A DNA stretch of 64,000 bases from an uncultured Spirochaetota bacterium (GCA_963820525.1 CAWGAA010000001.1:1056001-1120000); one strand, 5' to 3'. Counted from the stretch's first letter, positions 39,125 through 64,000 are shown. Notes: generated by a model not told the origin, from the sequence alone. Numbers and translations: made by a program.

Positions 39125-39197
39125 TCCCCTGTAGCTCAGCTGGTAGAGCGGGTGGCTGTTAACCACTAGGTCGGCGGTTCGAGTCCGTCCGGGGGAG
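39125..39197 (+). tRNA. tRNA-Asn(GTT)
   Basis: TCCCCTG/CGGGGGA acceptor stem, GCTC/GAGC D arm, GTGG-CTGTTAA-CCAC anticodon arm, GGTTCGAGTCC T loop. Confidence 0.96.
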
Positions 39198-39210
39198 CTG
39201 AGACCGAGTC

Positions 39211-39257
39211 GAACAGGCCCTTTTATGGTTAACACTATAGGAGGGCCTGTTTCGTTT
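39211..39257 (+). terminator. Hairpin after the tRNA; also the downstream arm of the att-like repeat family (copy 1)
   Basis: gaacaggcccttttatgg-ttaaca-ctataggagggcctgtttc. Confidence 0.7.
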
Positions 39258-39640
39258 CGGCGTAAGCCAGTCACCATCAGCTTGTCACGTTCTTTCGGAG
39301 TTCATGCCAGCTATTTGCCTCGGTGATGATGCTCTCACTGAGACATTCTGCGACAAATCCGCCATCCTGCTCTTGAAGTACTTCGAAAACGAGTTTGCCA
39401 TTTAGAGTCGCCATAGGCTATGTTCTTACTAGACTACTGACTCGTTTGTCGACGAATATTCAAAAGGGGTCAGTTTCTCCTTGTTCTTTTGCTCATGGCG
39501 GCTGGCTCGAAGCTCGTCAATCTGGGCGGGCGACTCCTGTGTTCCGCCGCCGGTCTTGAAAACCTCAGCGCTTCGCGATAAAGATAGCGGGGAGATGAGA
39601 AATTCGGGCCAAGAGCCACGACGCACCTGAAAAGCAGAGC

Positions 39641-42118
39641 ATGACAGACAGACAAGAGTTGCAGAACGAGATCTCACGCGAGGATACCCGGCTCACCGTC
39701 CTCAAAGCCGAAGTGGAGAAAAGCAACACCCGCTTAAACGCGCTTCGTGAGCAGCTCGCCGCTGAGCCGCCCCTGCAGATCGCCGTCCCCAGGCTGCCGG
39801 CTCCAGAGACAACACCGACACCGATGACGAATGCGGCCAAGGTCGCCCTTTTCCGGTCGCTTTTCCGAGGCCGCGAAGACGTCTTCCCGCGACGCTGGGA
39901 GAACGCGAAGAATGGCAAATCCGGCTACTCACCGGCCTGCACTAACGAGTGGGAGTACGGATTGTGCGCGAAGAAGAAGGGGCTCAACGCCAGCCGGCGT
40001 GTTCACTGCTGTGAGTGCCCCAGCCAGGCATTCATCCCGGTTTCAGACGAGGAGATCGCCAAGCACCTGCGAGGGGACCAGATCATGGGGGTCTATCCCC
40101 TCCTGCCAGACGATACGTGCTGGTTCCTCGCAGCCGATTTCGACAAGAAAACGTGGCATGATGATGTCATGGCGTTTATCGAGACCTGCGACACACACGG
40201 TATCCCCGTGGCGATCGAGCGATCCCGCTCGGGCAACGGCGCGCACGCCTGGTTTTTCTTCGCATCGCCTGTGCCCGCGGCAACAGCACGCAAGCTCGGC
40301 TGCTTTCTCATCACCGAGACCATGGCACATCGGCACCAGCTCTCGATGGAATCGTACGATCGCCTATTCCCCAACCAGGACACCATGCCGAAGGGCGGAT
40401 TCGGCAATCTGATCGCACTCCCTTTCCAACGTCATTCGCGCGACGCGGGCAACACCGTGTTAGTCGATGCCGTCCGAAAGCCCTGGTCCGATCAGTGGAC
40501 CTTTCTCGCCGGCATCAAGCGCCTCGATGCGACCTTCATCCACGCCCTCGCCGAAGAGGCCGCGAGTCGCGGGCAGGTGATCGGCGTCCGTGTAAGCGAG
40601 ACACTCGACGATGACGATCTGACGCCCTGGACCCGACCGCCTTCCGGACGCCCGAGAAAGGTCGTGATCACCGCGCCCCTACCTCCTAAGGTGAAGGCGG
40701 TCCTGAGCCAACGCTTGTTTATCGAGAAGGCCGGTTTGCCGTCGCCCCTGCTCAACGAGCTCAAACGCCTTGCTGCATTCCAGAATCCAGAGTTCTACAG
40801 GAAGCAGAGCATGCGCCTCTCAACGGTGCTCACGCCCAGGGTGATCGCGTGTGCCGAGGACTCCCCCGAACACATCACTCTTCCGCGCGGCTGTTTGCCC
40901 GATGCCGAGGCTTTGCTTCGCCAGAATGGAGTCGCGATAGATGTCAAGGACAAGCGTGAAGGCGGGACGCGGTCGACTTCGCATTCCAGGGCACCCTCAC
41001 CCCACTCCAGGAGTTTGCCGTGAAGGCGCTCCTCGAACATGATACCGGCGTGTGTGTCGCGCCGCCGGGCGTCGGCAAGACCGTAGTCGGCGCGTACCTA
41101 ATAGCAGCCCGGAAGACTAGCACGCTCATCCTCGTCTATCGCAAGCCGCTCCTCGACCAGTGGATCGGCCAACTGTCAATGTTCCTCGGCATCGGGCCCA
41201 AGGACATCGGCCGGATCGGCGCGGGGAAATCTAAACCCAATGGCCGGCTCGATGTGGCCATGGTCCAGAGCCTCGCGCGAAAAGGGAAGGTCGCAGATCT
41301 CGTCGCAGGCTACGGCCAGGTAATCGGTAATCCAAGACGAGGTCCATCATGCACCGTGTGTGAGCTTCGAGCGTGTTCTGGCCGAGGTGAAGGCCAGGTA
41401 CCTCGTCGGCCTCACCGCGACTCCACAGCGCCGAGACGGGCTCCATCCCATTCTCCACATGCAGCTCGGTCCGATCCGGTTTACGGCAGACGCGAAGAGC
41501 CAGACAGCCCAACGGCCGTTCGACCACAAGCTCGTCGTCAGAGAGACGGGGTTCTCACCCACTGGCCACACGGCCGATGCTGGAATCCAGGAGCTCTACG
41601 CGGCACTCGCCGCCGACAAGAAGCGCAACGACCTCATCTTCGACGACGTGCTGTGTGCTCTCGAGGAGAAGCGCTCGCCCATCCTGCTCACGGAACGGCG
41701 GGAGCATTTGGAACACTTCGCCGACCGGCTTCAACGCTTCACTTGACATCTTATCGTGCTCCACGGCGGCATGAAAGACAAGGAGCGACGTGAGGTTCTC
41801 TTGAAGCTCGCCGGGATCCCCGACGGAGAGGAGAGGCTTATCATCGCGACCGGCAGGTACATCGGCGAAGGCTTCGACGACGCCCGGCTCGACACCCTGT
41901 TTCTCGCGTTGCCTGTCTCATGGAAGGGGACGCTCGTCCAGTACACCGGCCGGCTGCATCGCCTGCATGCGGGCAAGACCGAGGTTCGGATCTACGACTA
42001 CGTTGACAGTGCGGTCCGGATGTTGTTGAAGATGTTCGAGAAGCGGCTTCGCGGCTACAGGGCGATCGGATACGTCCGTGACGAGGAGGTGCTTCGAAAC
42101 CCCGAGGATAGGACATGA
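39641..42118 (+). pseudogene. AEP primase-like domain + SF2 (ResIII-type) helicase, TOTE-like, disrupted
   Basis: LFRGREDVF, CWFLAADFD, ERSRSGNGAHAW, GFGNLIALP, PPGVGKT, DEVHH, GLTATP, EGFD, QYTGRLHR; frameshift near 40965, ggtaatc duplication near 41318-41331, in-frame TGA at 41744. Confidence 0.82.
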
Positions 42119-42355
42119 GGAAAATAATGGCCGCAGATAAGAGAAAGCCGTCAAAGAAGAAGGGGCATAGCAGGACTCCGTCGAACGCGAGGCTCGAGCG
42201 GATCGATATGACGATGACGAGCATATTGTCGCGGTCTGTACGCACGGGAAGTCGCCCCAACGCGTCCCGATCCTTGACCCACCGCTGCCTGACCCACTTC
42301 CCGCTGGCGCGGAGTGGATCGACGCATTTCGCCGCTGGGCACGAGGGAGATAATC

Positions 42356-43051
42356 ATGGCCGGTCGACAGATCGATCGAGACAAGCTTAGGGCGGCCGTC
42401 CGCAGGCTGGGCGATGAGTACGTGTTCTATATGTTGGACGAGGCTATCGACCTCTTGCCCCAGGCGAAGCTCCTGAAGCTGGCAAAGCACTATATCGACC
42501 CGTCGAAGCTTGAACCGGATGGCAAGGCCGAAGGGAGCCTGCTCTCCGACGTGAAGGTTTTCGAGAAGGCGAGCTTGGCCGGCGAGTACTACGAGAGCTT
42601 CAATGTCAACTCGAAGAACTGCGTGGAAAAATCCACCGGCACCAGGGCTTGGATCGCCGATTGTCACCGGCTACTCGACCGCTGCGTGGCCCAGGAAAGG
42701 AAGGGCGATCCCGCCGATGTGCGCCAGGCTTTCGAAATCATCTTCGGGGTATTGGACCGCATCGACGAGTGTCTCGACGACGTCATCTTTTTCGCCGACG
42801 AGGCGGGATCGTGGCAGGTCGGCGTCGACTGGAACAAGGTCCTGCCTTCCTGGTTCAGGGTTCTTTCGGCAACTGCCGAGCCCGCGGAGTACGCCGAAAG
42901 GATCACGGTTTTGCTGGAGCGCCACTACAACTACGGGAGCAGGAAGATGCTCGCCGTCGCACGAAGGACGGCGACACCACAGCAACGTAAGGCCCTTTCT
43001 TGCGTCGTGAATCGGAAACCAAGTCAGCGACTACGCTGCAGGAAATCATGA
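42356..43051 (+). CDS. Hypothetical protein
   Basis: GGGAGA RBS; intact ORF with FFADEAGSWQVGVDW; stop overlaps the next start. Confidence 0.75.
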   Translation: MAGRQIDRDKLRAAVRRLGDEYVFYMLDEAIDLLPQAKLLKLAKHYIDPSKLEPDGKAEGSLLSDVKVFEKASLAGEYYESFNVNSKNCVEKSTGTRAWIADCHRLLDRCVAQERKGDPADVRQAFEIIFGVLDRIDECLDDVIFFADEAGSWQVGVDWNKVLPSWFRVLSATAEPAEYAERITVLLERHYNYGSRKMLAVARRTATPQQRKALSCVVNRKPSQRLRCRKS

Positions 43052-44187
43052 GCGAATACCAGTACTACGAGTTCCAGGCGATCGACCGGCCGCTCAGCGC
43101 GAAGGAGATGAGCGTGCTGCGGTCATACTCGACGCGGGCCCGCATCACGCCGACGAGCTTCGTCAATCACTACGAGTGGGGCAGCTTCAAGGGCGACGAG
43201 GACGCGTGGATGGAAAAGTACTTCGACGCGTTCGTGTACCTCGCCAATTGGGGCACGCACGTGCTTAAGCTGCGATTGTCGTCGAGGCTGCTCGATCCGG
43301 CAATGGCCGGGAAGTACTGCGGCGGCAATAGCGCCTTCATCCACGAGAAAGCCGGCAAGGTCATCCTGACCTTCGTGTCCGAAGACGAGGAAGGCGGCGA
43401 GTGGGAAGAGGGTGAAGGCCAGCTCTCCTCGATGATCTCCGTGCGGACCGAGCTGGCGCGCGGTGACTTGCGGGCCCTGTACCTGGGCTGGCTGCTTCGG
43501 GCGCAAGCCCGGGAACTCGACGACGAAGATGTAGAGCCGCCCGTTCCGCCGGGCCTCGGTCAGCTCAGTGCATCGCTGGAAAGCCTGGCCTCGTTCCTGC
43601 GCATTGACGACGACCTGCTGCACGTGGCCGCCGAGACCAGCAGGCCGCTTGGAGACACGGATATAGATCGGAACGAGGTCCGAGCGTGGGTCGAGAAGCT
43701 GGCGACCAAGGAGAAGGACGCGCTAATCGCGAACCTCATAATGGATGCCGACCACACCCTGGTTACGGAGCTGCTACAGCGGTTCATCAAGGAGCGATCG
43801 ACTGAAACCACGACGGACACGGTCCGAAGACGGACCGTGAGGCAACTCTGCCGGGCAGCCGAGGCCTTCGCAACGAAGCGTAGTCGCATCGAGGCTCACA
43901 AGCGTGCCGAGGCGAAAGCCCGCCTCGAACGCAAAGCCGCCATCGCCAGGGAAAAACATCTCGACAGCCTCGTCGGCCGCGAGCAGAAGCTGTGGGCCAA
44001 GGTAGAAACGCTAATCGCCGCCACGCAGCCGAAAAGTTACGACCTGGCCTTGAAGATCCTTGTCGACCTGCGCGATCTGGACGTCCGCGGCAAGGGCGGC
44101 GACTTCGCTCTGCGCATGGAAACGCTCCGGCAGGCTCACGCTCGAAAGCCCAGCTTCATCGAGCGGCTCGGGAAGGCAGGGCTGTAA
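43048..44187 (+). CDS. Conserved hypothetical protein (MSEYQYYEF..DRPL family)
   Basis: ATGA coupling; YFDAFVYLANWG, GDLRALYLGWL, EPPVPPGL. Confidence 0.8.
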   Translation: MSEYQYYEFQAIDRPLSAKEMSVLRSYSTRARITPTSFVNHYEWGSFKGDEDAWMEKYFDAFVYLANWGTHVLKLRLSSRLLDPAMAGKYCGGNSAFIHEKAGKVILTFVSEDEEGGEWEEGEGQLSSMISVRTELARGDLRALYLGWLLRAQARELDDEDVEPPVPPGLGQLSASLESLASFLRIDDDLLHVAAETSRPLGDTDIDRNEVRAWVEKLATKEKDALIANLIMDADHTLVTELLQRFIKERSTETTTDTVRRRTVRQLCRAAEAFATKRSRIEAHKRAEAKARLERKAAIAREKHLDSLVGREQKLWAKVETLIAATQPKSYDLALKILVDLRDLDVRGKGGDFALRMETLRQAHARKPSFIERLGKAGL

Positions 44188-44846
44188 TGGCGGCGAACAG
44201 GCACACCAGAAAACCTCTGGATCGGCGTAAGAAAACGACACCGAAATCGACAAAAGGTAGCCGGAAGAGCGTCTTGGGCAAAATGGCCCCATATGAGCTG
44301 GCCACCGTCCTGCAAGCCCTGCTGAAGAGACATCCGGAGCTCAAAGCCGAGGCGGAGGCGGCCGCCATCGGGATGGTGTCCGCCTTATCCGTCGAAGACA
44401 TCGCCGCGAAAGTGTTCGATGCAGTGACATCGCTCGGCCTCGAATCCCTTCACGGCCGCGCGGGCAATCAGCCGTGGGGCTACGTGGAGCCGGCAGACGC
44501 CGCCTGGGAATTGCTCGAAGAACCGGTCGAGGACATCATCGCCGACATGAAACGGTACATGGACCTCGGGCTGAAGACGGCGGCTGAAACGATCTGCTGT
44601 GGAATCGTGGCGGGTCTCCACAAGGCCGAGAGCGTCGGCTCAAACGGTCTGCTCGGTTGGGCGCCGGACTTTGCCGAAGAGGAAGCGTGTAATGCCGTCT
44701 TCGAGTTGATCCGCGCGTGCCCTGGCAAGGACCGCCGTGCCGTCCACGACAGGCTCGTCGAGGCTCTCGACGACCTCGTCCTGAACTGGCACAAAACGCT
44801 CTCTCAAACGGCAGTTCGCGCGTTACACAGCAGCTCGGTGTCGTGA
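44187..44846 (+). CDS. Hypothetical helical protein
   Basis: TAATG coupling; RAG..PWGYVEP.DAAWELLEE motif. Confidence 0.72.
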   Translation: MAANRHTRKPLDRRKKTTPKSTKGSRKSVLGKMAPYELATVLQALLKRHPELKAEAEAAAIGMVSALSVEDIAAKVFDAVTSLGLESLHGRAGNQPWGYVEPADAAWELLEEPVEDIIADMKRYMDLGLKTAAETICCGIVAGLHKAESVGSNGLLGWAPDFAEEEACNAVFELIRACPGKDRRAVHDRLVEALDDLVLNWHKTLSQTAVRALHSSSVS

Positions 44847-44879
44847 AAAACATACACACCCATGGTTAGAGTGCGGCCG

Positions 44880-44984: not shown

Positions 44985-45195
44985 TTACTTCTTGCTCGAC
45001 CTTGCTCCAGCGACCCGGTATTCGCGGTAGTCGAGACCGAGGGGGAAACGGCCGGCTTGGTTGTACCAGTTACCGGCAGAGCGTTTCAAGTCAGTAATCC
45101 CGGCGATGTTCATCTCTGGCAGGTGCGGGCCGTGGTAGAACTGCTCTCTTCGGGCGTTCCGCCGAATGAGGACAAATCGCGGCAGCGGCAAAGCG

Positions 45196-45315
45196 TCCTC
45201 GATCAGGCTTATGAATGAGGGCATTGATCGTTTGGTCGCTGGTTCGAGTCCGTCCGGGGGAGCAAAGGAAAGGTCGAGCTGGCTCTCTCTGGCGTTCGCC
45301 ATGGAGAGCCGGCTC
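45196..45315 (+). repeat. att-like site copy 2: tRNA-Asn 3' end plus arms
   Basis: ggtcgctggttcgagtccgtccgggggagc (45234-63, 2 mismatches to the tRNA), upstream tcctcgatca, downstream gagctggctctc/gagagccggctc hairpin. Confidence 0.9.
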
Positions 45316-45403
45316 TGACAATAGTCATTCCGCTTGGCGATTTCGGAAGTGCGGCGGGAGGAGCGGAAGTTTCAATAGGAGCGGCAGACCAATCTGGCAT
45401 GAG

Positions 45404-45682
45404 TCACTGGCGGCGCCATTCCATTCTTTCATACACATCCTTCCTGTGACAGACGCCAAGAATGAGAATGTCTTCACCTTCGATTTTCAGAACAATCCGA
45501 TAGTCCCCAACCCGCAGCTTTCTGTAGCCTTTCAGAGTTCTTCTCAATGGCTCCGAGTACTTGTCTGGAGATTCAAGTAGCCGCTGCTCAATGGCGACCT
45601 TGACTCTTTTCTGGATTGTCCGGCTGAGTTTTGGCAAGTCCTTTGCCTTGACGTCCGGGTGGTAGCTGAGGTGATAGGGCAC
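45404..45682 (-). CDS. RelE/ParE family toxin
   Basis: YHPDVKAKDLPKL..PLRRTLKGYRKLRVGDYRIV..HRKDVY. Confidence 0.9.
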   Translation of the reverse strand: MPYHLSYHPDVKAKDLPKLSRTIQKRVKVAIEQRLLESPDKYSEPLRRTLKGYRKLRVGDYRIVLKIEGEDILILGVCHRKDVYERMEWRRQ

Positions 45683-45684
45683 CT

Positions 45685-45912
45685 CTATCCCCAGACCTCA
45701 GCGTGCGTTAGGGTTTTCCGACGGGCTAGTGAATCAACACGCTCATCCGCAAAGCTCACGAGGGCAGAGTCCTCGAGGATTTCCAGAGCCTCCCGGACCA
45801 AGTCCCTGGTCACCATGGACAAGGACAATCCTCTCTCCTTCGCCATCCTCTCGATCAACGAATAGACCGGCCTTTCGAGGGCAACATTGATTCGGGGATT
45901 CTTGGTAGGCAT
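45685..45912 (-). CDS. RHH-type antitoxin
   Basis: 75 aa, RINVALE..AKERGLSLS..LED..THAEVW, directly upstream of relE. Confidence 0.85.
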   Translation of the reverse strand: MPTKNPRINVALERPVYSLIERMAKERGLSLSMVTRDLVREALEILEDSALVSFADERVDSLARRKTLTHAEVWG

Positions 45913-45930
45913 TGCTTTCCTCCAAGGAAT

Positions 45931-45952: not shown

Positions 45953-46216
45953 GTGGCAACTGCCCATGAGGGCGCTTGACCGCCGAGTAGGGCAATCGCG
46001 GCTGCCAAGGGGATCTGCAACGCCGAAAACGCCACTCCGAGAACATGGTCGCTGCGAGGTTGATCCACGGCCGCTTTTACTTTGAGCCCGTCGTTATCAG
46101 GAATGCCTTCACACGGCGCACAAGCCGCAAGCGCAAGGTTGTAGAGGAGCGACCTTGAGCGACATGAATCCGTCCTTTGCCGATTTCGGTGCTTGCCGTA
46201 TGAGAAATGGACGGTA

Positions 46217-46320
46217 TCCTCGATCATTTGCAGCAAATGACCGCGTTACCAACCCGTTCGGCGGTTTGAGTCCGTCCGGGGGAGCGAAGATTGAGTCGAA
46301 CTGGTTTCCCCTGGCTAACA
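46217..46320 (+). repeat. att-like site copy 3
   Basis: tcggcggtttgagtccgtccgggggagc (46258-85), upstream tcctcgatca, downstream gagtcgaactgg..tggctaacac. Confidence 0.9.
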
Positions 46321-46385
46321 CGTCGCAGCTTGCAGGGGGCGTCCCCAAGGCGCCCAGGAGGATCCGGCTGAAGAACTGAGAGAGG

Positions 46386-46637
46386 CTACCCCGTGCTCTT
46401 CAGCTCCTCTCTGAGGATGCGGCGAAGGGTTTCCACGTCCAGCGGACGCGCTGACCTTCCCAGATACTCACGGAGGGCATCGTTTATCATGGTCTGGTAT
46501 CCCCGGCCGGCGGCATCCGCACGGTTGCGGAATTCCTCCAGAATCTCATCATCAAGGTAGATGCTGATCCTGCTCTTCCCTTTCTGAGGGATGACCGCCC
46601 CCCGCTTGGCCTTGCTGAAGTCATATTCCTTCCTCAT
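46386..46637 (-). CDS. BrnA family antitoxin
   Basis: MRKEYDFSKAKRG..ISIYLD..GYQTMINDALR. Confidence 0.9.
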   Translation of the reverse strand: MRKEYDFSKAKRGAVIPQKGKSRISIYLDDEILEEFRNRADAAGRGYQTMINDALREYLGRSARPLDVETLRRILREELKSTG

Positions 46638-46893
46638 AGTTTTTCCTCTCACTCCTCGTCGCGGTCCTGGCCGAAATCAGCCGGATTGTCTGACCGCGAT
46701 AGGAGTAGACAATGACAACAATCCGGCCTGATGAATCCGTCCCCATGGACACGAACCGTTGCTCGCCGCGAGCCTGGGAATCCTCCCTTGTGAGGGCAAA
46801 GGGATCAAAGAGCACCGCCTCGGCGTCGGAGAAGCGAATCCCATGCTTCCTTTGATTCGACGCAGCTTTCCGGGGATCCCACACAACTTGCAT
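46621..46893 (-). CDS. BrnT family toxin
   Basis: WDPRKAASNQRKHGIRF..EQR..IRLISARTATRSERKNYE; TTGATA-17-TATGCT promoter at 46928-46900. Confidence 0.9.
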   Translation of the reverse strand: MQVVWDPRKAASNQRKHGIRFSDAEAVLFDPFALTREDSQARGEQRFVSMGTDSSGRIVVIVYSYRGQTIRLISARTATRSERKNYEEGI

Positions 46894-47142
46894 ACTCAGA
46901 GCATATACATACATTATACATATATCAAGTGCCTGACGGCAATCGGAATACGGAGGGACGCAGGCAAAGTCGTATGGGGCCGCGAAAGCGAAATCATCGC
47001 TGAGCGGGTAGACGCTGGAGCTTAGACTCAAGGATTTCCGAATGCGATGGCTGCGAGTGAAAGGCTGTACAGATGCGGCCTTGGAAAGCACAAGCTTTGT
47101 ATTTGCATGCTCCGGCTCCCTTTGTGCATGAAGCATAGCAAG

Positions 47143-47250
47143 TCCTCGATCAGCGGGATGGCCGACCGTGTTAACGTCCAGGTCGCTGGTTCGAGTCCGT
47201 CCGGGGGAGCAGAGTTGGACAGGCAGTCGGCACAGAGTCGACTGCCTTTT
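47143..47250 (+). repeat. att-like site copy 4
   Basis: tgttaac..aggtcgctggttcgagtccgtccgggggagc (47169-47210), upstream tcctcgatca, hairpin aggcagtcggc/gtcgactgcct plus T run. Confidence 0.9.
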
Positions 47251-47284
47251 CTGTTTCTTGGGCGCAGCGGCAGGTCAGAGGGTC

Positions 47285-47740
47285 CGGCGCCAATAGAAGA
47301 TCGCCAGCTGGGTCCTACCACGCAGGTTCAGCTTCTCCAGCACCGTGGAGATGATGTTGCGGGCGCTGCCCTCGCTGATGAGGAGAGCGTCGGAGATCTC
47401 GCGGTTGGAGCAACCCCTGCGCCACCAACTCCGCCACCTCGTTCTCACGCGGCGTGAGGCCGGGTAGGGGCTGGGGATACGCGTCCGTGAGACGGTCCAG
47501 CATGCGCGCGTCCAGCACGGCGGTCTCCGTCATGAGGGCGCGAAGCCGCTACGCCATGCCGGCGGTGGGGGTGGATTTCAGCAGGTAGCCGGCCGCGCCG
47601 GCCTGGAGGGCCTCGCGGATACTCTGATCGTCCTCAAAGGTGGTGAGGATCATCACCCGGACCGTCGGCCAACGGCTTCGGATTTTTCGCGTCGCCTCGA
47701 TGCCGTCCATGCCCGGCATGCGCAGGTCCATGAGCACGGC
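47285..47740 (-). pseudogene. NarL/LuxR response regulator remnant
   Basis: LMDLRMPGMDGIEATR..ILTTFEDD..GYLLK and LTPRENEVAELVAQG in broken frames; N-terminus absent. Confidence 0.8.
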
Positions 47741-47897
47741 GGGCGCCCACTTCCATACTGACCGCGTTTTTTTTGTCTAAAAAAATCCTTAAAAAGCTCT
47801 TGACAAGGATGATATTTAGTAGCATTATACACTTAATTGCTTTTTGCACTTATAGAATTATTACTTATAGATGTGTAGTGAAGGATGGAGAGAGACG

Positions 47898-48299
47898 ATG
47901 TACCAGTCAGGTGATTGCGGAAGCATGAAAGGGCATGGTGAAGGGTCTTGTAGCTGCGAATCCAGGCATGAGAAGTTCATCGATCCCTGCCTGCTTCTCC
48001 TCATTGCGCAAGATCCATCCCATGGCTACGACCTCATCGAGCGGCTTAAAAAATACGGCTTCGATGGGGTGGATCCCACCAGAGTGTATCGGCGCCTGCG
48101 CCATCTGGAGGATTGCGGATTCCTCGAATCCGCGTGGTCGACGGACACTCCCGGGCCCGCGCGTAGAGCGTACAGGATCACAAAGGAGGGCCTGGATTTC
48201 CTTCAGACATGGCCTCCCGCGGTCCAGAGATCGATCGAGTCGTACAAGTCTTTTATCGACGATTTGACCGCTCTGAAGAATAAGGGGCAAAAAGGGTGA
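47898..48299 (+). CDS. PadR family regulator with Cys/His-rich N-terminus
   Basis: SHGYDL..VYRRLRHLE..GPARRAYRITKEG. Confidence 0.88.
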   Translation: MYQSGDCGSMKGHGEGSCSCESRHEKFIDPCLLLLIAQDPSHGYDLIERLKKYGFDGVDPTRVYRRLRHLEDCGFLESAWSTDTPGPARRAYRITKEGLDFLQTWPPAVQRSIESYKSFIDDLTALKNKGQKG

Positions 48300-53773: not shown

Positions 53774-53966
53774 ATTAGCCGTAACTGTTTGTCATATCTA
53801 CAGTTAGGCGCTTAGACTCGCCTCTCTATCTCTTGATACTTCCCCCATAAACGATCTGTCGCAAAGGTGTTTCTATTGAAGCTTTCCATTTGATACACTG
53901 CTGTCGTACCGCGTCCGGATGCATGCCTTGAAAAATCTATCCTGAGAAATCACAGATCGAGGAGGA

Positions 53967-55139: not shown

Positions 55140-55164
55140 CAGGGACCTCGCGAGGAGCTGGCCC

Positions 55165-55580
55165 ATGGAGGCTCATGACCGCACGAATGGTCTTGGGAGC
55201 CAGGGTCCTCAGGGCAGTCGCCTTCGTCACGTACAAGGAGTGAGCGGCATACAGGAGCTTCAACTTCTCCAATATCTGTTGCAAGAACCGATGGCTTTTA
55301 GGTGGCAGACAGACGTATGGACTACCAAACGGATTGCAGATTCGATTGAAAGGAAGTTCGCCATAAGCTATCACTACGCGCATGTCAGCCGCATCATGCA
55401 TGCCTTGGAATGGAGTCCACAAAAGCCTGAACAGCGCGCTCTACAACGCAACGAGGCAGTCATCCAAGAGTGGAAGACTACCAACTGGAAGAGGATAAAA
55501 AAAACGCCACGCGGCTGGGCGCCCACCTTATTTTTATCGATGAATTGGGTTTCATGCAGCCCTACGATGAAAAGAGGTGC
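55165..55580 (+). mobile_element. IS630-family transposase fragment
   Basis: WTTKRIA..ISYHYAHVSRIMHALEWSPQKP..ALQRNE winged HTH; A-run at the orfA/orfB junction near 55497-55504. Confidence 0.7.
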
Positions 55581-55584
55581 AATG

Positions 55585-56188
55585 CCGAAATCTCAATGAA
55601 CGTTGCTTGACATAGTGGGCGTGTTCCCAGAAGCGCACTCTCCTTTTCGGTGAGTACATGAACGAGCACCTCCTGCTCCTGCTGCCCCACCGCCAGTTCG
55701 TTTGGACCATACCTAAGATCTTACGATGCTATCTCAGGCACGACCGTAGCTTATATGCCGACATCGGCAGGCTCATATTCGAAATTCTGTCCTCCTATTT
55801 CAGTCAGGCTTCGGGCAGGCCGATCCAGGGAGCCATGGTCAGTAGCCATCAGACATTCGGACAATTCGCCGTTTGGAACCCTCACTGGCACACCATCGGG
55901 TTGGAAGGCGGATTCGACCGCTGCGATCGGTTCTTTTTCATTCCCCTGGGCGCCAACGAAGCTCTTGTGGAAATCTGGCGATGCAAGGTGGTTGCGTTGT
56001 TCCTCGATAAAGGCCTGCTGAATCCGAGTTTCGCCCAAACTCTGCTGAAGTGGCGCCACTCGGGCTTCTCAATCGAGAGCAGCACACGCATCTACGACGA
56101 GGATGCGCGCAGGGCATTGAGCCAGTACATCGTGCGCGCCCCGTTGTCGCTGACAATGCTCGAATGGGATCAGGAGCAGGACACCGTT
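55585..56188 (+). mobile_element. IS91-like (Y2) transposase fragment, cut at att-like copy 5
   Basis: LPHRQFVWTIPK.LR, HQTFG..WNPHWH..EGG, WRHSGFS, QYIVRAP. Confidence 0.75.
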
Positions 56189-56238
56189 CGGGGGAGCAGG
56201 ATCGGACAGGCAGTTGGGTTACCATCTGCCTGTTTTTT
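56189..56238 (+). repeat. att-like site copy 5
   Basis: cgggggagcag..ggacaggcagt matches the copy 4 arm; hairpin acaggcag/ctgcctgt plus T run. Confidence 0.8.
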
Positions 56239-56513
56239 ATATCCTGAGCGTAGTTGCGCGCCGCCTGTGCCATTCGGTGAATGATGTAGAACGGAGGCTT
56301 GAAGGCAAGGGCCACTTGGTCGTCCTTGAGCGCCGAGCCTGGCATGATGAAGTGCAGGAGAGCCGCCCGTTAGGCTTGGCCCCGCCTTCGGTAGAACACT
56401 TAGGCGTTCCAGGCGATCTCCAGGAGCCGGATCCCCTGCTCGATGTAGTTCTGGTCCGCCTTCTCGTGCCGCTCGATCTGAGCGCGGATTTAGGCCTGTT
56501 CCTCGCGCCACTG
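56190..56513 (-). pseudogene. Large serine recombinase C-terminal remnant reading into the att core
   Basis: Manual translation QWREEQA*IRAQIERHEKADQNYIEQGIRLLEIA..LLHFIM..LAFKPPF, then (frameshift) KKQADGNPTACPILLPR; three internal stops. Confidence 0.7.
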
Positions 56514-56714
56514 AAAGAGGTTTCGGCGGTTGGCGGCCGCGCGGGAAGCGGGGATCAAGTACCTCATCCGCTTCGACCGGCTTCGGGCGACGCCGCTTCC
56601 GTTGCCGTAAAACCGTCTCCGAAAAAGCGGGACAGTCCGTCCCGGGCCGTCCTCGAGCCGTTTCCCTTGACGCGCTTCTCGGATGTTGTACCATTGAAGT
56701 ACGAGGTAGAACAA

Positions 56715-58636
56715 ATGAAAAGACGCGCGTTTTCCCTGGTATTGCTGGTAGCGTTAGGCTGGTTCGGGTGGTCGGAAAAACTGGTCATCCGGCCGGCCCA
56801 GGATCTCGGCAAGGGGTTCATAATGGGCGCCGACGTTTCGATGCTCGATCAGATCGAATCCCTCGGCGGCGCCTATTACGACGAGAATGGAAAGCGGGGC
56901 GATTGCCTCGCCATCCTGAAGGCCGGCGGCGTCAACTGGATCCGCTTGAGGATATGGAACGATCCCGTGAACAAGGAGGACGTTATCGAGGGCGACCGCG
57001 TCCTCTCGAAGGCGGGCGACCCGGCGGGCGGGGGGAACGACGACCTCGCCGCGTTTATACGCGTCGCCAAACGCGCGAAGAAACTCGGCCTCAAGGTATT
57101 GGCCGATTTCCACTACAGCGATTTCTGGGCCGATCCGGGCAAGCAATATACCCCCTACGCGTGGAAGGGCCTGGGCCTCGAGGAGCTCAAGAAGGAACTC
57201 TATCGCTATACCGACGCGAGCCTGAAAGCCATGCGCGCCGCGGGCGCGATGCCGGACATGGTTCAAGTCGGGAACGAGGTGGACGGCGGCTTCCTCTGGC
57301 CGGTCGGCAAGATATGGCAATCGGGAACCGACGAGCTGGTAGGCGGTGAGAGCGCTTTCATCGCCCTTCTAAAAGAGGCGGTCCGCGCCGTTCGCAACAA
57401 TGATCCGGCCAAGGGCAATCCCTCGAAACGGATCAAGGTAATGATCCACGTATCGAACGGCGGGGACAACGCGCTGTTCCGGAAAGTATTCGATCCCATA
57501 ATCGAAGGAGGCGTCGACTTCGACGTCATCGGCCTTTCCTTCTATCCGTATTGGCATGGCAAGCTCTCCGATCTTGCGGCGAACATGGCTAACCTCGCGA
57601 CCCGTTACGGGAAGGAGATGATCGTCGCGGAGACGGGGTACGCCTGGACCCTCGAACCTGGAGATTCCCTGGAAAACAGCTTCGGGCCGGGATCCGACAA
57701 GCTCGGCGGCTATAGGGCGACGGTCCAAGGCCAGGCGATTGCTTTATGCGATATCATCAGAACCGTCGCGGGCGCGCCCGCCTCCAAGGGCATCGGCATC
57801 TTCTACTGGGAACCGGATTGGATACCGGTCGCTGGGGCCGGCTGGAGGACGGGCGACGGTAGCTCATGGGAAAACCAGGCGCTGTTCGACTATACGGGGA
57901 AGGCCTTGCCCTCGATCAAGACGTTTAAGCTCGTCGCGGCGAAGGGGGAAATTCCCGATTTGAGGGTCATCGAAGTCGAGGGCGTCAAAACGAAGATCCC
58001 GGCCGGCGGAGTCCTCGCGCTGCCTCCCAAGGTACTGGCTACCTATTCGGATGATTCCTACCGAACCACGCAGGTGAATTGGAGCAAGCCCGATCCCGCC
58101 GCATTGAAAAACTCGGGACCCTCGAGGTAAAAGGCTCGGTGTGGGGATACAAGGGAGACGTGATCGCGACAGTCGAAATAGTCGCCGATGTCAACTTGAT
58201 ACCAGACTCGAGCTTCGAGTCTGGAGTTCTCGATCCCGGATGGGAGCTCTCCGGGGAGGGGGTCAAAGCCGCGCTGGTCGAGAGGAATCCGGGCAACGCG
58301 CACAGCGGCGAATACTCGTTCAAGTACTGGCTCGACAAGCCCTTTACGTTCACCCTCGTCCGGCGTTTCTCCGGGCTGAAGGACGGGACCTATACGCTTC
58401 GGGTCTGGGCCGCGGGAGGCGGAGGGGAGAAGGATTATTACCTATTCGCGCGGGACTACGGCGGTCCCGAACTGACTGCTAAAATCGTCAACACCGGTTG
58501 GCAGAAATGGAAGCTCTACGAGATCAAGGGCATACCCGTCAGCGGAGGCGTTTGCGTTATCGGGCTGTCGATGGACGGCAATCCGGGCAACTGGGGCAAC
58601 GCGGACGATATCGAGTTCACGCGCGACTCCGATTGA
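56715..58636 (+). CDS. GH53 endo-beta-1,4-galactanase with Ig-like and CBM-like C-terminus; one frameshift near 58115
   Basis: GADVS, DFHYSDFWADPGKQ, QVGNE, SFYPYWHG, VAETGY, FYWEP. Confidence 0.88.
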
Positions 58637-58769
58637 GGCGGACGCCGACGCGCTAGGCGTCTCGCCGGAGGCCGCGTTCCGCGGATCGACGCTCTTTCGA
58701 GTCGGCCCCGCCCTAAATGATAGCAGTTTTATACTCGGAGCAGGGCCGGCGGCGCTATTGGGCGACCGA

Positions 58770-59130
58770 GCCGTCTACGCCGTGCGAGAACTCGTTGTCG
58801 GAGGTGAAGCAGATTACGGTGCCAACTCCGTTCTCATCGATGCTTATCTTTTTCAGCGACAGCGGGGGTCGAGCGATGCATTGGACAGGGCCTCGCGGCC
58901 TCTGATCGAAAAAGCCGAAATGCGGATGGAATGGTCCACGGAAAAACCAGAGTGCATCCAGTTGATGAGGCTGGTGGCCAGATGCGCGTTGATCAGCTCT
59001 TTCTTCAGGAACCCGCACTTTCATTGCCTCGTTGTGGAAGTTTGTCCATATCCCCCTTCGACGATATCCAGCGGATGTCGGAGTACTTCCGTCGAGTGGT
59101 CATCAAGTTTTCCATAGCAAAAATTCGCTA
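58770..59130 (-). mobile_element. Second, decayed IS91-like transposase fragment
   Basis: LINWMHSGFSVD..R and IARPPLSLKKI in broken frames. Confidence 0.6.
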
Positions 59131-59359
59131 AGGTATCAAAGGACCGGCTCCTTCTTCCAGCTCTGCCCGCCCGTTCATCCTCGTCATGCGCTCCCTGACG
59201 CACGGCGTCCCTGCTGCGCGTCCCCGCCTGCTCGGCGCCGTGCTTCGCAAGCGGAGCACGGCCGGCAGAGGAATGAGCCCTCATATAATGTGGGGAAGGA
59301 GGGGGTCGCAGGTACGGGTCCGTTTGCCTTGGACCGCAAATGGCAATATACTGTGAAGA

Positions 59360-59952
59360 ATGTCACGACGGGCAGGAGCCACCAGCGCGTGATGATACTG
59401 GAGGTGATGGGACGCACCGCTGGATGGATCGCGCTCGAGGCCGGGATTTCGGGCGGCGCACATATCATTCTCATCCCGGAGATCCCCTATTCCATAGATC
59501 GAATAGTCGAGAAAATCCAGCTCAGAGAAAAGGGAGGCAGCCCCTTTACCATAATGATGGTGGCTGAGGGCGCCCACGAGGAGGGCGGTGACGTCATCAC
59601 ACAGGCATCCGCCTCAACGCGGCTTCAGGGCGTTGTCCAACTCGGAGGGGTCGGATTCCATATCGCCGACGCGATAAAAAAGCGCATAGATCTTGAGGTT
59701 CGCTGCACGGTTCTTGGTCACATTCAGCGCGGGGGATCGCCCTGCGCCTTCGACTGCGTTCTGGGGACAAGGTTGGGCAGCTACGCCGTATAGGCCGCAG
59801 CGGAAGCGAAATTCGGCACCATGGTAGCCCTGAAAACCCCGGATATTGCCTTGGTTCCACTTTCGGAACTTGCGGGGAAAGTACGCAGGGTCCCGCCTGA
59901 TTCACAGCTCATCCAAAGCGCGGAGCTCATTGGAATCAGCATGGGGAGGTGA
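59360..59952 (+). pseudogene. 6-phosphofructokinase C-terminal fragment
   Basis: SHQRVMILEVMGRTAGWIAL, LGHIQRGGSP; N-terminus missing; in-frame TAG at 59791. Confidence 0.85.
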
Positions 59953-59969
59953 GGCGGAGACTACGGCAG

Positions 59970-60085
59970 CGGTAGAAAGCGTTCCATTCTAATGTATTTG
60001 CCTTAGCTCCCCCTATTGGACGAGCTTCGAACCTACTGCTACGAGCATCAGATCGAGAGATCCCCGCGCTACTGGCGGTTGTGAA
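59970..60085 (-). repeat. att-like site copy 6, inverted
   Basis: Reverse complement reads gtagcagtaggttcgaagctcgtccaatagggggagct, closely matching reconstituted copy 9; core at 60006-60013. Confidence 0.85.
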
Positions 60086-60143
60086 GGGGTGTTCGAGGGA
60101 GTCCTTGGTTCTCAAGCGGAGAAAGGGCGGCAACGAGATGATG

Positions 60144-60260
60144 CCCTCGATTTGCGCGGGGGTTGCTCGGCGCGCGTTCGCTACCTATTGCCCCGGGGGA
60201 GCAAAGACCAACACACTCGAACGGAGCGCTTTCTGGCTCACACTGGAAAGCGCTATTTTT
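60144..60260 (+). repeat. att-like site copy 7
   Basis: ccgggggagc core at 60195-60202, upstream ccctcgat, hairpin agcgctttc/gaaagcgct plus T run; downstream arm resembles that of copy 6. Confidence 0.75.
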
Positions 60261-60456: not shown

Positions 60457-61056
60457 TCACTTCTTTGTGTACAGGATGAAACAGCCCTTCACTTTTCGAC
60501 ACTCCAAATCCTGTAGACCAGCCGCGCGAAAAAGCCGTTCCATCTCCCTTCGCGAGTAAAAGTGATAAACACCGAATTTTAAAAAGGGCACAATGCCATT
60601 TGCCAAAACGCGAATGGGATTGGGAAAATCTAATTCCGCAATGAGAAGAAGGCCGTCCGGCTTGAGCACACGCAACATCTCCTTGAGCACCGCCATGGGC
60701 CGCGGGTAATGGTGGAAAGAAGAGGTGCATATCACGACGTCGAATTCGCGGTCGGGCCACGGCAGGAATTCGGAATCGCCGACCACGAGCCGGGCCTTAC
60801 CCGCAAGTCTTTGTCCCGCCTGTTTTATCATCTCGGGAGAGATGTCGATTCCGCTTATTTTTTTTCCTTCTTTCCACAGCATCTCCATGATTCTGCCGTC
60901 ACCGCAGCCCACGTCGAGAAGGGATTCACAGGCGAAACCGTTTATCAGCCGCGCGATTTCCTCATCCGCGTTCGAGCCCATGTGCGCCGTACCGTAATTC
61001 CCCGCCCACCTATCAAATTGCTTTTTTGATTTTTCCTTGTAAACCGCCGCTTGCAT
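60457..61056 (-). CDS. Class I SAM-dependent methyltransferase
   Basis: LLDVGCGDG, GIDISPEM, FDVV..SFHH, RVLKPDG; AGGAGG RBS. Confidence 0.9.
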   Translation of the reverse strand: MQAAVYKEKSKKQFDRWAGNYGTAHMGSNADEEIARLINGFACESLLDVGCGDGRIMEMLWKEGKKISGIDISPEMIKQAGQRLAGKARLVVGDSEFLPWPDREFDVVICTSSFHHYPRPMAVLKEMLRVLKPDGLLLIAELDFPNPIRVLANGIVPFLKFGVYHFYSRREMERLFRAAGLQDLECRKVKGCFILYTKK

Positions 61057-61918: not shown

Positions 61919-61986
61919 TCTTCGATGAGGGCGGGAGGCCCGACGTTAGCCTTCGGTCTGCTGGCGGGAGCAGAGACTGAGTCGAA
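61919..61986 (+). repeat. att-like site copy 8, degenerate
   Basis: ggcgggagcagagactgagtcgaa compared with the tRNA flank gggggagctgagaccgagtcgaa; upstream arm reads LIED antisense. Confidence 0.7.
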
Positions 61987-62074
61987 TGAAACGATCAGAT
62001 GGCCAGGAGCGTGGGTATCTCATCGATTTTATTCTCATAGCAGTAAGTTCTGATATGAAGTGACCTGTCAAGCC

Positions 62075-62360
62075 TGCCCTCTTTTTTCCTCTTATCTGTT
62101 CCTCCTTGGGCGGGGCATTTCGAGCAAAGGTCGAAGCGGCGTTCGACGACGGCTGATCACTCTGATATTCGCGGATCGAGCGTCACTGCCCGCCTGCATA
62201 ATCGTGATCCGTCGGGAGCTGCCTCTGACTAAGAACGCGAGTCCGGTCGATATCGACCTGTCGCATAGAACCTATCGAGGATTCTCCTTTCCGTGTGCCG
62301 TGCGACCTTTGCCCGCAATACCCCACCATCATAGCTTGCTTACCTCGGCGCGGCGCACCC
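62075..62360 (-). ncRNA. Predicted bridge/seek RNA region of the IS
   Basis: Four short segments match both strands of the target (AGGTTCTA, CTTAG) and of the circle junction (ATTATG, ATATCAG). Confidence 0.65.
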
Positions 62361-62362
62361 TT

Positions 62363-63511
62363 CTACGCCGCGCCTTTTGCCTTCTGCGCCTGAGCGCTTT
62401 CCACGCTCACCCCGATGGCCCAGATGAATCCCAGCATCTCGCGTGCCACCGCAGTAACCACTTCCTGTCTTGATTTGCCTTTGCCCAGCAGGTGCATATA
62501 GCGGCTATGAAGGCGGTGACGTGCCTTCGATGCAACCTCCTGCACTTCCGCACTCAGGCCTTCCTGGCGCTTGCGCATGGCGAGGCTGAGCACTGGTTTG
62601 TAGCGTTGGGACCACGCCGCTTCCACTATGACGCGTCGCAAATGGGCGTTGCCGGTCTTGGTAATCCCTCCGCGGCGAGTCTTGCCGCCGCTGGAATGCT
62701 CGCTGGATACCACCCCGCTGTATCCCATGAGCTGACGCGGGTGCTCAAAGCGCGACAGCGTGCCCAATTCGGCCACGATCGTCACCGCCCCCACCTTCGC
62801 CACTCCCCGAAGCGCCTGCAGCGCTTGGATGAGTTCACGCATGCTCTCCGGCGCCTGCTCGACTGCCTCGTCGATCGCCTTCTCAAGCCGGACAATTCGT
62901 ACGCTAGTATGCTCCACTTCGTTGAGGTAGTCCTCCAAGGTCACCTGCTGGGGCCGCTGATCGAAGCTCACCTCCCGTTTGATCCAGTCGAGGTACTGTT
63001 GCGTCCACGACCGCATTGTCTGCGGCGGGCGTTTGCCATGCCGCAGAAGGTATTTCCCAAGTCGATGGCGAGCTCGGAGTTGGTCTTGCTTTGACGCCTC
63101 CCGCGCACGCACCAGGTCTCGCAGTGCCTCGTGTGCCGCATCGGGCACCCACACCGGCGTTAGCTCCCCAGCCCGAAAGCTGCAAGCCAACCGCTCGGCA
63201 TCCCGCCTGTCGGTCTTCACCCGATCCCCTGCCTTCGTTGGCACCAGTGTCGGCGCTATCACCACACAGGGGATCCCCAGCTTCGTCAGTTGCCAGTACA
63301 GCGTGTAGCCCGTCGGTCCGGCCTCGTAGCAAGCCGCCCACGCGCCCCCCTCATTGAGTTTCTTCACGAGCTTTCGAACGCTCTCCTCCCGATTGGGGAT
63401 GCTCCCGAGCCTGCGGACTGCCTCATCCTTTTCCGCCATCGCCGCCACGATGGTCTCCGCATGGGCATCGAGCCCTACAAAACGCCGCACTGCTGTGATA
63501 GCCTTCTTCAT
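62363..63511 (-). CDS. IS110 family transposase/recombinase
   Basis: VGLDAH, CYEAGPTG, KTDRRDA (DEDD), SEHSSG, ITKTGNAHLRR. Confidence 0.95.
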   Translation of the reverse strand: MKKAITAVRRFVGLDAHAETIVAAMAEKDEAVRRLGSIPNREESVRKLVKKLNEGGAWAACYEAGPTGYTLYWQLTKLGIPCVVIAPTLVPTKAGDRVKTDRRDAERLACSFRAGELTPVWVPDAAHEALRDLVRAREASKQDQLRARHRLGKYLLRHGKRPPQTMRSWTQQYLDWIKREVSFDQRPQQVTLEDYLNEVEHTSVRIVRLEKAIDEAVEQAPESMRELIQALQALRGVAKVGAVTIVAELGTLSRFEHPRQLMGYSGVVSSEHSSGGKTRRGGITKTGNAHLRRVIVEAAWSQRYKPVLSLAMRKRQEGLSAEVQEVASKARHRLHSRYMHLLGKGKSRQEVVTAVAREMLGFIWAIGVSVESAQAQKAKGAA

Positions 63512-63604
63512 GACCGCCTCCTTCGTATGTAGCTCTGCGCTACTTTCACCCGATCGCAGCGCAATCTACGATGCTACGATCGGGGCGGTCACTTCATTAT
63601 GACT

Positions 63605-63678
63605 AAGCTCGTCCAATAGGGGGAGCTGAGACAGAGTCGAACTGGCTCTCTTTGGCTAAGACCATGGGGAGCCGGTTC
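63605..63678 (+). repeat. att-like site copy 9; its upstream arm (61995-62051) is displaced by the IS
   Basis: gggggagctgagacagagtcgaactggctctc..ggggagccggttc is close to the tRNA downstream flank. Confidence 0.9.
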
Positions 63679-63872
63679 TTCTTCGGCCTCTTCCACGCCG
63701 GCTCCTTTCAAATAGTGCTAGAATACTTTGTTGTTTCTGCGAGGTGCAAATACTACCAGTGTCAACGCTCGGTGAGCTGCGCAGACTAGGTCATCAGGAA
63801 TCTGCCGGATGGCTATGGAAGCTTGTCGCAGACCAGGGAAAGATGTAGACTTCACATGAGAGGCCACTTGTC

Positions 63873-64000
63873 ATGATGATAGATACAGAGAGAGAAGAGG
63901 ATGGCCGCTGGATCGCCGAGGTTCCCGATTTACCTGGTGTGTTGGTCTATTCAACAACACGGACCGCGGCGATTGCGAAAGCAAAGGCTATGGCTCTTCG
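63873..64000 (+). CDS. HicB family antitoxin, partial; runs off the window
   Basis: Manual translation MMIDTEREEDGRWIAEVPDLPGVLVYSTTRTAAIAKAKAMAL. Confidence 0.82.
   Translation, partial: MMIDTEREEDGRWIAEVPDLPGVLVYSTTRTAAIAKAKAMAL

Follow-up and report, generated by a model that had tools for sequence, protein, structure and literature searches.

An integrase-less array of att-bounded cassettes at the tRNA-Asn gene of an uncultured, probably spirochaetal bacterium

The window analysed in this study is a stretch of 64,000 nucleotides from the genome of an uncultured Spirochaetota bacterium (GCA_963820525.1, CAWGAA010000001.1:1056001-1120000; assembly G000, 4 contigs, 5.05 Mb, 96.7% complete). 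From the 3′ end of a tRNA-Asn gene at 39.2 kb to about 66.0 kb, that is, over about 27 kb of which about 2 kb lie beyond the window, the DNA is divided into units by repeated copies of the tRNA 3′ end with characteristic flanks, here called att sites. The sites share a modular anatomy that is conserved family-wide, and cassettes anchored at the tRNA-derived core recur in related genomes with different neighbours. Several of the units are type II toxin–antitoxin (TA) cassettes of 0.7-1.2 kb with their own promoter-like sites. The array is best read, with a probability of roughly 0.6, as the product of accretion by site-specific recombination at the tRNA-Asn 3′ end, its units being non-autonomous cassettes akin to cis-mobilisable elements (CIMEs) whose integrase is now gone; an integrase acting in trans would have moved the small cassettes as units, and with that integrase absent the array would at present be frozen. 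All positions are given in window numbering, which is continued past the window end where needed, and the features are collated in Table 1.

The anchor tRNA and the anatomy of its repeated att sites

The anchor, tRNA-Asn(gtt), was the single tRNA gene detected in the window by ARAGORN and the sole tRNA-Asn gene among the 46 tRNA genes found in the assembly. It ends in the core GGGGGAGC, for which the initial annotation, made from the sequence of the window, had listed eight exact positions and a ninth with one mismatch. All eight were confirmed by sequence search, and the ninth exists as the degenerate core GCGGGAGC, one base off the coordinate first given, at 61964-61971. As a bare 8-mer the core is insignificant, since its 12 exact matches in the window (6.63 expected) were also reached in 4 of 100 shuffles; the sites were accepted as real because of their flanking context. 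Two matches, at 48495 and 49120, were rejected as chance occurrences inside an ABC-ATPase gene with unshared flanks.

In the copies ending at 45263, 46285 and 47210 the tRNA is repeated from the T-arm to the 3′ end, with both flanks in common. A genome-wide search with the last 23 bases of the tRNA (up to 3 mismatches) returned seven places, five of them in or beside the array: the tRNA-Asn gene itself, the core ends 45263, 46285, 47210 and 64809 (the last being a copy 787 bp past the window end), and C1:2132859 and C2:200692. The core-to-core unit sizes (6065, 1022, 925, 8987, 4005 and 1768 nucleotides, and about 0.1 kb) agree with those of about 6.1, 1.0, 0.9, 9.0, 4.0, 1.8 and 0.1 kb reported initially.

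An att profile was prepared from seven strong copies and scanned over the whole genome with nhmmer. The seven members returned with E values of 1e-22 to 1e-35, among them the tRNA (2e-27) and the strongest copy, at 64731-64868 beyond the window (5.8e-35). A copy consisting of core and downstream arm only (63610-63683) was found at E 4.4e-10, followed by C2:206741-206863 (6e-5) and 60193-60260 (0.006). The profile was not significant at 56184-56236 (E 0.21) or at 61966-62004 (E 5.4); the site at 56190 is supported otherwise, in that homology to the related genome G003 begins 7 nt past the core in both genomes. A second profile was built from three copies of a variant unit of about 95 nt, one of which is 59995-60115. 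It found this copy, with its inverted core at 60006(-), at E 1.2e-32 (the copy being itself a profile member) and matched 61966-62051 (E 4.5e-9, profile positions 5-90) and 63592-63635 (E 1.4e-5); the latter two stretches are therefore one unit halved by an insertion sequence (IS) of the IS110 family. The profile scan of the genome and of loci of related genomes, as proposed in the initial annotation, yielded a further copy past the window and the same family of sites in related genera; the original description of the array as tRNA-anchored and site-specific is supported.

The anatomy of the site was taken from an alignment of 48 copies from G000 and from 23 loci of relatives. A full site measures about 140 bp and has three parts. 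In the upstream P arm, GTCCTCGATCA lies some 68 nt ahead of the core end and is separated by a variable spacer of about 17 bases from GTTAAC, which occupies the anticodon-loop position; the middle part is the tRNA from the T-arm to GGGGGAGC; and the downstream P′ arm is of two main types, GAGTCGAAC plus a hairpin or GGACAGGCAG plus a hairpin. The conserved upstream arm noticed initially is present, but the distance from the start of TCCTCGATCA to the core end is 68, 69 and 68 nt (copies at 45263, 46285 and 47210), not 67, 68 and 67 nt. Upstream sequence of 75 nt or more is available for 17 copies; in these, TCCTCGATCA was exact in 10, had at most one mismatch in 12 and at most two in 16, and GTTAAC was present in 10.

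Eight of the nine P′ arms of G000 gave hairpin folds (z -2.4 to -8.1) whose stems differ in sequence, and the degraded arm at 46286 gave none (z +1.2). A simple terminator scan flagged one hairpin only (47221-47247), because the loops of the others exceed its limit. Since the tRNA-Asn gene is the only one found, an integrating element would need to bring a functional 3′ end and terminator with it, and this would explain why the downstream arm is conserved. In three of the six pseudo-copies of G000 the T-stem is a hybrid, with GCTGG as its 5′ strand, CCGTC as its 3′ strand and a C-T mismatch between them, and both matched forms of the stem are present in real tRNA-Asn genes of the family; such hybrids are expected from a crossover between the T-stem strands, inside the tRNA part.

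It was also considered whether the repeats could be functional tRNA-like RNA modules that insulate operons by processing or termination, rather than recombination sites. The P′ arms are indeed strong hairpins, some with T-runs, and TCCTC at -68 could, to judge from its bases, pair with 5 of 7 acceptor-stem positions. This explanation is nevertheless very improbable: Rfam scored the true tRNA only, with none of the pseudo-copies at E≤0.1, so that the copies are not tRNA-like RNAs; several of them have mismatched T-stems; and across genera the gene content between the sites is interchangeable, for which termination signals alone are insufficient.

Cassettes shared with relatives and with metagenome contigs

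The comparison set consisted of other genera of the same family or order, with none of the genus of G000. Of the 92 genomes of the order, 5 contained the strict P-arm-plus-core pattern; these all belong to family f1, and the reversed control gave zero. In a profile scan of the fetched loci, G014 had the tRNA plus three further copies; G008:C92 had seven copies on the same strand, enclosing units of 700, 3009, 695, 889, 797 and 840 nt; G024:C8 had four, two of them about 180 nt apart; and G010, G013, G022 and G004 had two to four each. The units of the relatives carry DUF433/PIN, BrnTA, ParE, HicB, HepT and AbiEi modules and sugar-use operons, and the frames scanned there yielded no recombinase domain. 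Very short, arm-only units were found at L032 (G024:C8, 6553-6968; about 180 and 179 nt) and at L040 (G010, 1178-1280; 102 nt).

Cassettes recur between genera with different neighbours. The BrnTA unit of G000 matches att-adjoining units in G008, G010 and G022 at 80-83% identity, and its ParE/RHH (ribbon-helix-helix) units match those of G010, G013 and G022 at 78-88%. The tRNA-proximal DUF433/PIN unit of G014 is an internal unit in G008, the match (81%) running from position 116 to the unit end in both. Of all 26 inter-genome unit matches of at least 250 bp, 7 began no more than 10 nt from the core in both genomes and 15 no more than 130 nt from it; offsets from the left core agreed to within 20 nt in 14. 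Between genera, cassettes share 78-88% identity, and the flanking flagellar region of G000, compared with five genomes of genus g3, gave best pieces of 73-76%, with most of its 4.6 kb unalignable; that the cassettes are more alike than this one chromosomal region fits horizontal exchange.

Near-identical DNA is present in freshwater-sediment and wetland metagenomes, of which contigs of four runs (X1-X4) from three studies were compared; assembled contigs cannot reveal circles or rare variants. In one X4 contig (depth 2) a variant arm of 36 bases connects 47207 with 56227, and in X3 (depth 14) 47226 is joined to 56418, with only 21 bases on one side. The two joints, from two wetland runs of two studies, are a weak indication that unit 4 was dropped at att sites. 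The stretch 49424-52079, for which X3 lacks contig cover, was left out of the interpretation. A further X4 joint, from 45925 to 42006, reproduces the module order of G022.

Some neighbouring observations concern the same relatives. The arm-only short units in G024 and G010 resemble the unit of about 95 nt in G000 and look like cargo-free cassettes. In G024 the intact tRNA-Asn gene (L029, 555-628) is followed on the same contig by integrases and a defence island, and another contig carries a 3′ half of tRNA type that starts at the anticodon loop (L032, 6553-6607), with IS genes before it and the att array after it.

The recombinase, competing readings and known systems

A six-frame Pfam search gave no Phage_integrase or Resolvase match in the window, which bears out the initial statement that no intact integrase is present there, and tblastn with three integrases (E up to 1 or 10) found neither an integrase nor a remnant of one in the G000 array. 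Genome-wide, 12 Phage_integrase matches and one Resolvase match were obtained, the nearest at C1:1155438; this tyrosine recombinase was set aside, as it has no tRNA nearby and no likeness to the array.

A candidate enzyme is encoded in relatives. In G007 an intact tyrosine integrase of 401 aa lies about 100 nt after the tRNA-Asn gene, followed by an HTH_17 (Xis-type) gene and then by a second integrase. Homologs at the same place were found in G012 (90% identity, to the contig end), G024 (72-75%, in two frames, hence frameshifted), G008 (50%), G006 (52 aa, to the contig end) and G034 (a 60-aa remnant); a second, intact integrase and a defence island also lie behind the tRNA-Asn gene of G024. 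Further homologs (37-40% identity) directly follow tRNA-Val genes in G015 and G021, so that the enzymes form a family of tRNA-3′-end integrases, and a homolog at E≤1e-30 is present in 14 of 41 genomes. The integrase at L038 of G015 was not used as a cognate enzyme, since it adjoins tRNA-Glu/Gln.

In the mechanism proposed, a cassette would have the form P′ arm–cargo–P arm and would be excised and integrated as a unit by a tyrosine integrase acting in trans, for which the clade found directly after tRNA-Asn in relatives, with the Xis-like helix-turn-helix gene next to it, is the candidate. Each integration would restore the tRNA end and the terminator. Toxin–antitoxin addiction would account for the persistence of the cassettes.

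A wider version of the proposal is offered tentatively, at somewhat less than even odds. A family of (probably) spirochaetes would possess an integron-like tRNA platform holding minimal non-autonomous cassettes, for the most part TA and defence modules, each with a complete site, and a tyrosine integrase with its Xis-like partner would excise these as circles and insert them singly, each time rebuilding the essential single-copy tRNA and its terminator. The integrase of such a platform might be encoded beside tRNA-Asn or on the incoming element.

Several observations weigh against the movement of single cassettes by an integrase. No integrase homolog at E≤1e-30 was found in the array-bearing genomes G000, G003, G004, G010, G014, G018 and G022. 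No integrase-bearing element with both ends was recovered among the relatives, so that the clade is tied to the arms through the shared tRNA-Asn target only; the integrase-bearing contigs of G007 and G024 show no second att copy, and the arm after the tRNA of G024 is of another type. The first unit of G034 holds the integrase remnant, which means that integrase-bearing islands do decay in this family. Among the 26 inter-genome matches, 12 are not at the same core offset and one ends at the core in both genomes. The order ParE/RHH, then BrnTA, is common to G000, G010 and G022, in keeping with segments of the array, and not single cassettes, having been inherited or transferred, and the identity of cassettes was set against one chromosomal region only. 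As to the metagenomes, the joints skipping unit 4 have a depth of 2 in one run and a side of 21 nt in the other; X1 and X2, which share the most words with the window, show no joint at the core; neither an empty site nor an excision circle was found among the assembled contigs, in which circles cannot be seen; and rearrangements away from the cores exist, as in the X4 joint 45925 to 42006, unit 1 being composite. Finally, identical stretches of 30-34 nt between att copies could support RecA-dependent exchange without an integrase.

These points bear on the question of whether the units are independently decayed tyrosine-integrase islands with no mobilisation at the level of the cassette, in which TA modules resisted deletion and reshuffling proceeded by segment inheritance or transfer and by RecA acting between att repeats of about 140 bp. 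The identical stretches linking att copies, the ParE/RHH-BrnTA adjacency in three genomes and the 12 matches not co-linear with the core agree with such a history, as do the broken primase-helicase in unit 1, the gene fragments and IS debris in units 4-6, the remnant in G034 and the frameshifted integrase at the tRNA of G024; tycheposon islands, as outlined in bioRxiv 10.1101/2020.12.28.424599, likewise hold fragmented integrases and scattered partial tRNAs. Decay of this kind, the main alternative, is nonetheless considered less likely. The G000 array, over at least 27 kb, contains no integrase remnant at all; tidy units of 0.7-0.9 kb keep both arms, five of them in G008:C92; one and the same cassette is tRNA-adjacent in G014 and internal in G008, with homology from att to att; 'empty' units of about 95-180 nt recur in G000, G010 and G024; and the P-arm motif is conserved though the adjoining spacer varies. 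The non-autonomous mini-cassettes of the initial annotation are thus favoured by core-anchored recurrence in different contexts and by a candidate recombinase in six relatives, while part of the array is a graveyard too.

The other of the two readings offered in the initial annotation was one of tandem islands of large serine recombinases, whose coding tails, LPRTDSN or LPLLDELRT, would cross the att site. The peptides do recur at the sites, but they arise from minus-strand translation, LPRTDSN from that of the tRNA 3′ end and LPLLDELRT from that of the variant unit, and stops occur within the flanking residues shown at eight of nine places. Three-frame translation upstream of 10 sites showed nothing in common in the way of a coding tail, apart from a loose xxLD pattern. 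The single Resolvase match of the genome is on contig C3, far from the att copies, and the recombinases beside the tRNA-Asn genes of relatives carry the Phage_integrase domain and are tyrosine recombinases. The attribution was accordingly abandoned as extremely improbable.

Among known systems, the closest formal category for an array accreted by site-specific recombination is that of CIMEs within tandem accretion. CIMEs and tandem accretion at the att sites of ICEs (integrative and conjugative elements) and IMEs (integrative and mobilisable elements) are outlined, with the ICESt1/ICESt3 model, in PMC5704250; as described there, CIMEs lie between att copies of the 3′ end of a target gene and are stacked at one site. 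Units 1-3 likewise lie between the tRNA and full att copies; integration and transfer genes of their own were not found, and they would depend on the integrase of another element. No ICE or conjugation genes were seen in the array by Pfam content. In contrast to CIMEs, many of the array units are sub-kilobase TA cassettes with a complete P/core/P′ site of about 140 bp that recur across genera, and an origin by decay is seen for unit 1 only, no remnant of a larger element being found in the TA cassettes.

Resemblances to other tRNA-associated islands are more partial. The tycheposons of Prochlorococcus, in the account of bioRxiv 10.1101/2020.12.28.424599, share integration at tRNAs, partial-tRNA repeats between tandem elements, the inward displacement of older elements by newer ones, primase/helicase modules and degenerate remnants. 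They are integrase-carrying by definition, whereas the present array is without an integrase and has a primase-helicase (broken) in unit 1 only; its host belongs to a different phylum, probably Spirochaetota, and the likeness drawn is one of arrangement and module type. Additive flexible genomic islands of Methylophilaceae, as presented in PMC10872708, resemble the array in having direct repeats of a tRNA 3′ end before size-variable content at a fixed site; they are described there by 20-bp repeats, whereas here the site is long and three-part with conserved arms, cassettes can be traced between genera, and a candidate integrase clade can be named. The Dehalococcoides ssrA islands outlined in PMC3146451 are likewise site-specific and tandem, with a small-RNA gene present once as their target and copies of its 3′ end repeated; in or near the present array no serine-recombinase domain was found. 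The kind of structure is therefore known in outline from CIMEs, tycheposons and additive islands. No published description of TA cassette arrays of this form at tRNAs, or of tRNA-Asn islands in spirochaetes, was found in the literature covered, from which subscription journals were absent.

The comparison with integrons, which the initial annotation had drawn, holds as an analogy only. Chromosomal integrons gather small, often promoter-bearing TA cassettes with their own sites at one platform, and some of their arrays lack an integrase. The present array has no IntI (with the integron-integrase model, whose cut-off is 265, the integrase of relatives scored 22.6 bits), and its sites are double-strand tRNA copies with arms rather than attC hairpins, a contrast drawn from the repeat alignment, with no attC model; its anchor is a tRNA, not attI.

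Should the cassettes move in trans, tRNA genes would be integron-like platforms on which free-living sediment bacteria swap TA, defence and sugar-use modules; the three-part site (P arm, tRNA end, terminator arm) would be a concrete, testable substrate; and the tidy boundaries of integrase-less 'additive islands' would be explained. A decayed stack of ordinary islands would be a clear but unremarkable example of accretion at a tRNA site.

Contents of the units and neighbouring loci

Table 1. Features of the tRNA-Asn array (window coordinates; z, fold score of the P′ hairpin)
Feature	Position	Strand	Evidence
tRNA-Asn(gtt), array anchor (attB side)	39125..39198	+	ARAGORN; Rfam tRNA 66.2 bits
P′ arm: GAGTCGAAC motif and strong terminator-like hairpin	39199..39262	+	fold z -8.1; 90% identical to arm after the 64809 copy
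Unit 1, AEP-TOTE primase/SF2 helicase pseudogene	39641..42088	+	Pfam AEP-TOTE 4e-95, ResIII fragment
Unit 1, module including 395-aa open reading frame (ORF) 43000-44187	42194..44195	+	83% over 2009 bp to G022 L037 5953-7957
Full att site 2, core end 45263	45185..45321	+	nhmmer E 5.9e-30; hairpin z -5.9
Unit 2, ParE/RelE-type toxin 45404-45682, RHH antitoxin 45685-45912	45404..45912	-	Pfam ParE_toxin 1.7e-10, RHH_1 3.6e-4
Full att site 3, core end 46285, P′ hairpin degraded	46206..46344	+	nhmmer E 5e-30; z +1.2
Unit 3, BrnA antitoxin 46386-46652, BrnT toxin ORF 46621-47136	46386..47136	-	Pfam BrnA 9e-12, BrnT 4e-27
Full att site 4, core end 47210, GGACAGGCAG-type P′ arm, hairpin, T-run	47136..47257	+	nhmmer E 2.7e-26; z -2.4
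Unit 4, 9 kb	47211..56189	.	Pfam
Half att site 5, consisting of core and GGACAGGCAG hairpin arm	56184..56236	+	nhmmer E 0.21; hairpin z -4.3
Unit 5, cargo	56214..59793	+	Pfam GH53 7e-119; phosphofructokinase (PFK) profile positions 148-274 only
Variant 'empty' unit of about 95 nt, inverted	59995..60115	-	profile E 1.2e-32; 79% identity to two copies on C2
Partial att site 6, variant P arm, core end 60202, P′ hairpin	60120..60260	+	nhmmer E 0.006; z -3.2
Unit 6, class I S-adenosylmethionine-dependent methyltransferase	60457..61056	-	Pfam Methyltransf_11 2e-27
Left part of IS-cut variant unit of about 95 nt: degenerate core GCGGGAGC, P′ arm, variant P-arm start	61966..62051	+	profile E 4.5e-9
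IS110-family element, transposase 62363-63511	62052..63604	-	Pfam DEDD_Tnp_IS110, Transposase_20
Right part of split unit, core end 63626, GAGTCGAAC hairpin arm	63592..63683	+	nhmmer E 4.4e-10; profile E 1.4e-5; z -3.6
Unit 7 start, HicA cassette leaving the window	63627..64000	.	HicA at 64070-64285 equivalent, Pfam HicA_toxin 4e-11

In unit 1 (39199-45263) the primase-helicase is interrupted by two frameshifts when compared with its intact 838-aa paralog at C1:2.13 Mb, against which it gave three tblastn pieces in frames 2/1/2; an X3 contig of a related strain lacks 7 bases at 41319, near one of the frame breaks. The AEP primase-helicase was rejected as a common hallmark of such arrays, since among the fetched loci it occurs in G000 alone. 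The unit 1 module with its 395-aa ORF, and the other unannotated ORFs, gave no Pfam, PHROG or NCBIfam match, and their Atlas clusters are labelled 'hypothetical' only.

Units 2 and 3 are both encoded on the minus strand with promoter-like sites upstream. The pair in unit 2 also has weak RelE/RelB matches in NCBIfam and a promoter-like site at 45959-45931, and the BrnT domain of unit 3 corresponds to the last 78 codons of its ORF.

Unit 4 contains a response-regulator fragment (a receiver domain, 47549-47737, minus strand), PadR, an ABC ATPase, a 1112-aa glycoside-hydrolase-like protein, a PF00144 serine hydrolase, and IS630-like and IS91-like fragments. The latter, an IS630-like helix-turn-helix and an IS91-like fragment (Y2_Tnp, below the cut-off), lie within 55165-56284 and occur genome-wide in numerous partial copies. 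The IS91-like frame reaches the core at 56190, with GTTC before it, and the P arm has been replaced there. Unit 5 encodes a GH53 galactanase, a 185-aa ORF and a C-terminal fragment of phosphofructokinase (59032-59793, plus strand).

In the inverted variant unit the P′ arm is joined to a variant P arm ending AAGCTCGTCCAATA-GGGGGAGC; att site 6 stands head to head with this unit, and its P arm aligns with C2:206741-206808. Past the full site at 64809, a second ParE/RHH cassette is followed by a second HicA-like cassette, and a fragment of the variant unit lies at 65508-65560 (E 2e-10).

The IS110-family element has CT at both junctions (GTTCT|GATATG...ATGACT|AAGCTC), giving GTTCT|AAGCTC as its target. 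Eight copies were compared in G000 and relatives, the one in G018 being 91% identical. Specificity for att was rejected, because the variant att P arm is the target in three of the eight copies and other places are in five, with a short target motif of about GTAAGTTCT|AA.

Two further loci of G000 carry att copies. At L003, on contig C2, near-identical copies at 10576-10761 (minus strand) and 16741-16925 (plus strand) are inverted around a 6-kb segment with an IS630-type transposase, an LpoB-like gene and others, and each copy is followed by an 'empty' unit of about 95 nt. The same head-to-head layout, with few bases between the arms, is seen in the window at 59995-60260, and it may be the trace of an inversion between att sites. 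L002 (G000:C1:2122001-2142000) bears a full att copy at 10803-10928 without a tRNA. It contains an intact 838-aa AEP-TOTE/ResIII/helicase gene and a DUF3368 (PIN-like) gene, and a nucleotidyltransferase cassette that is also present in G010 and G021, after which comes the att copy, beside a glutamate-synthase-like gene; a stretch of 1.57 kb is 98.5% identical to 66363-67928, just past the array.

On the other side of the tRNA-Asn gene, a single ORF of 606 aa (35822-37642, plus strand) fuses FliM with the middle and C-terminal domains of FliG. This fusion is shared by the nearest Atlas cluster, which is commonest in Spirochaetota, and in G003 the fusion lies in opposite orientation just beyond a 3′ fragment of tRNA-Asn.

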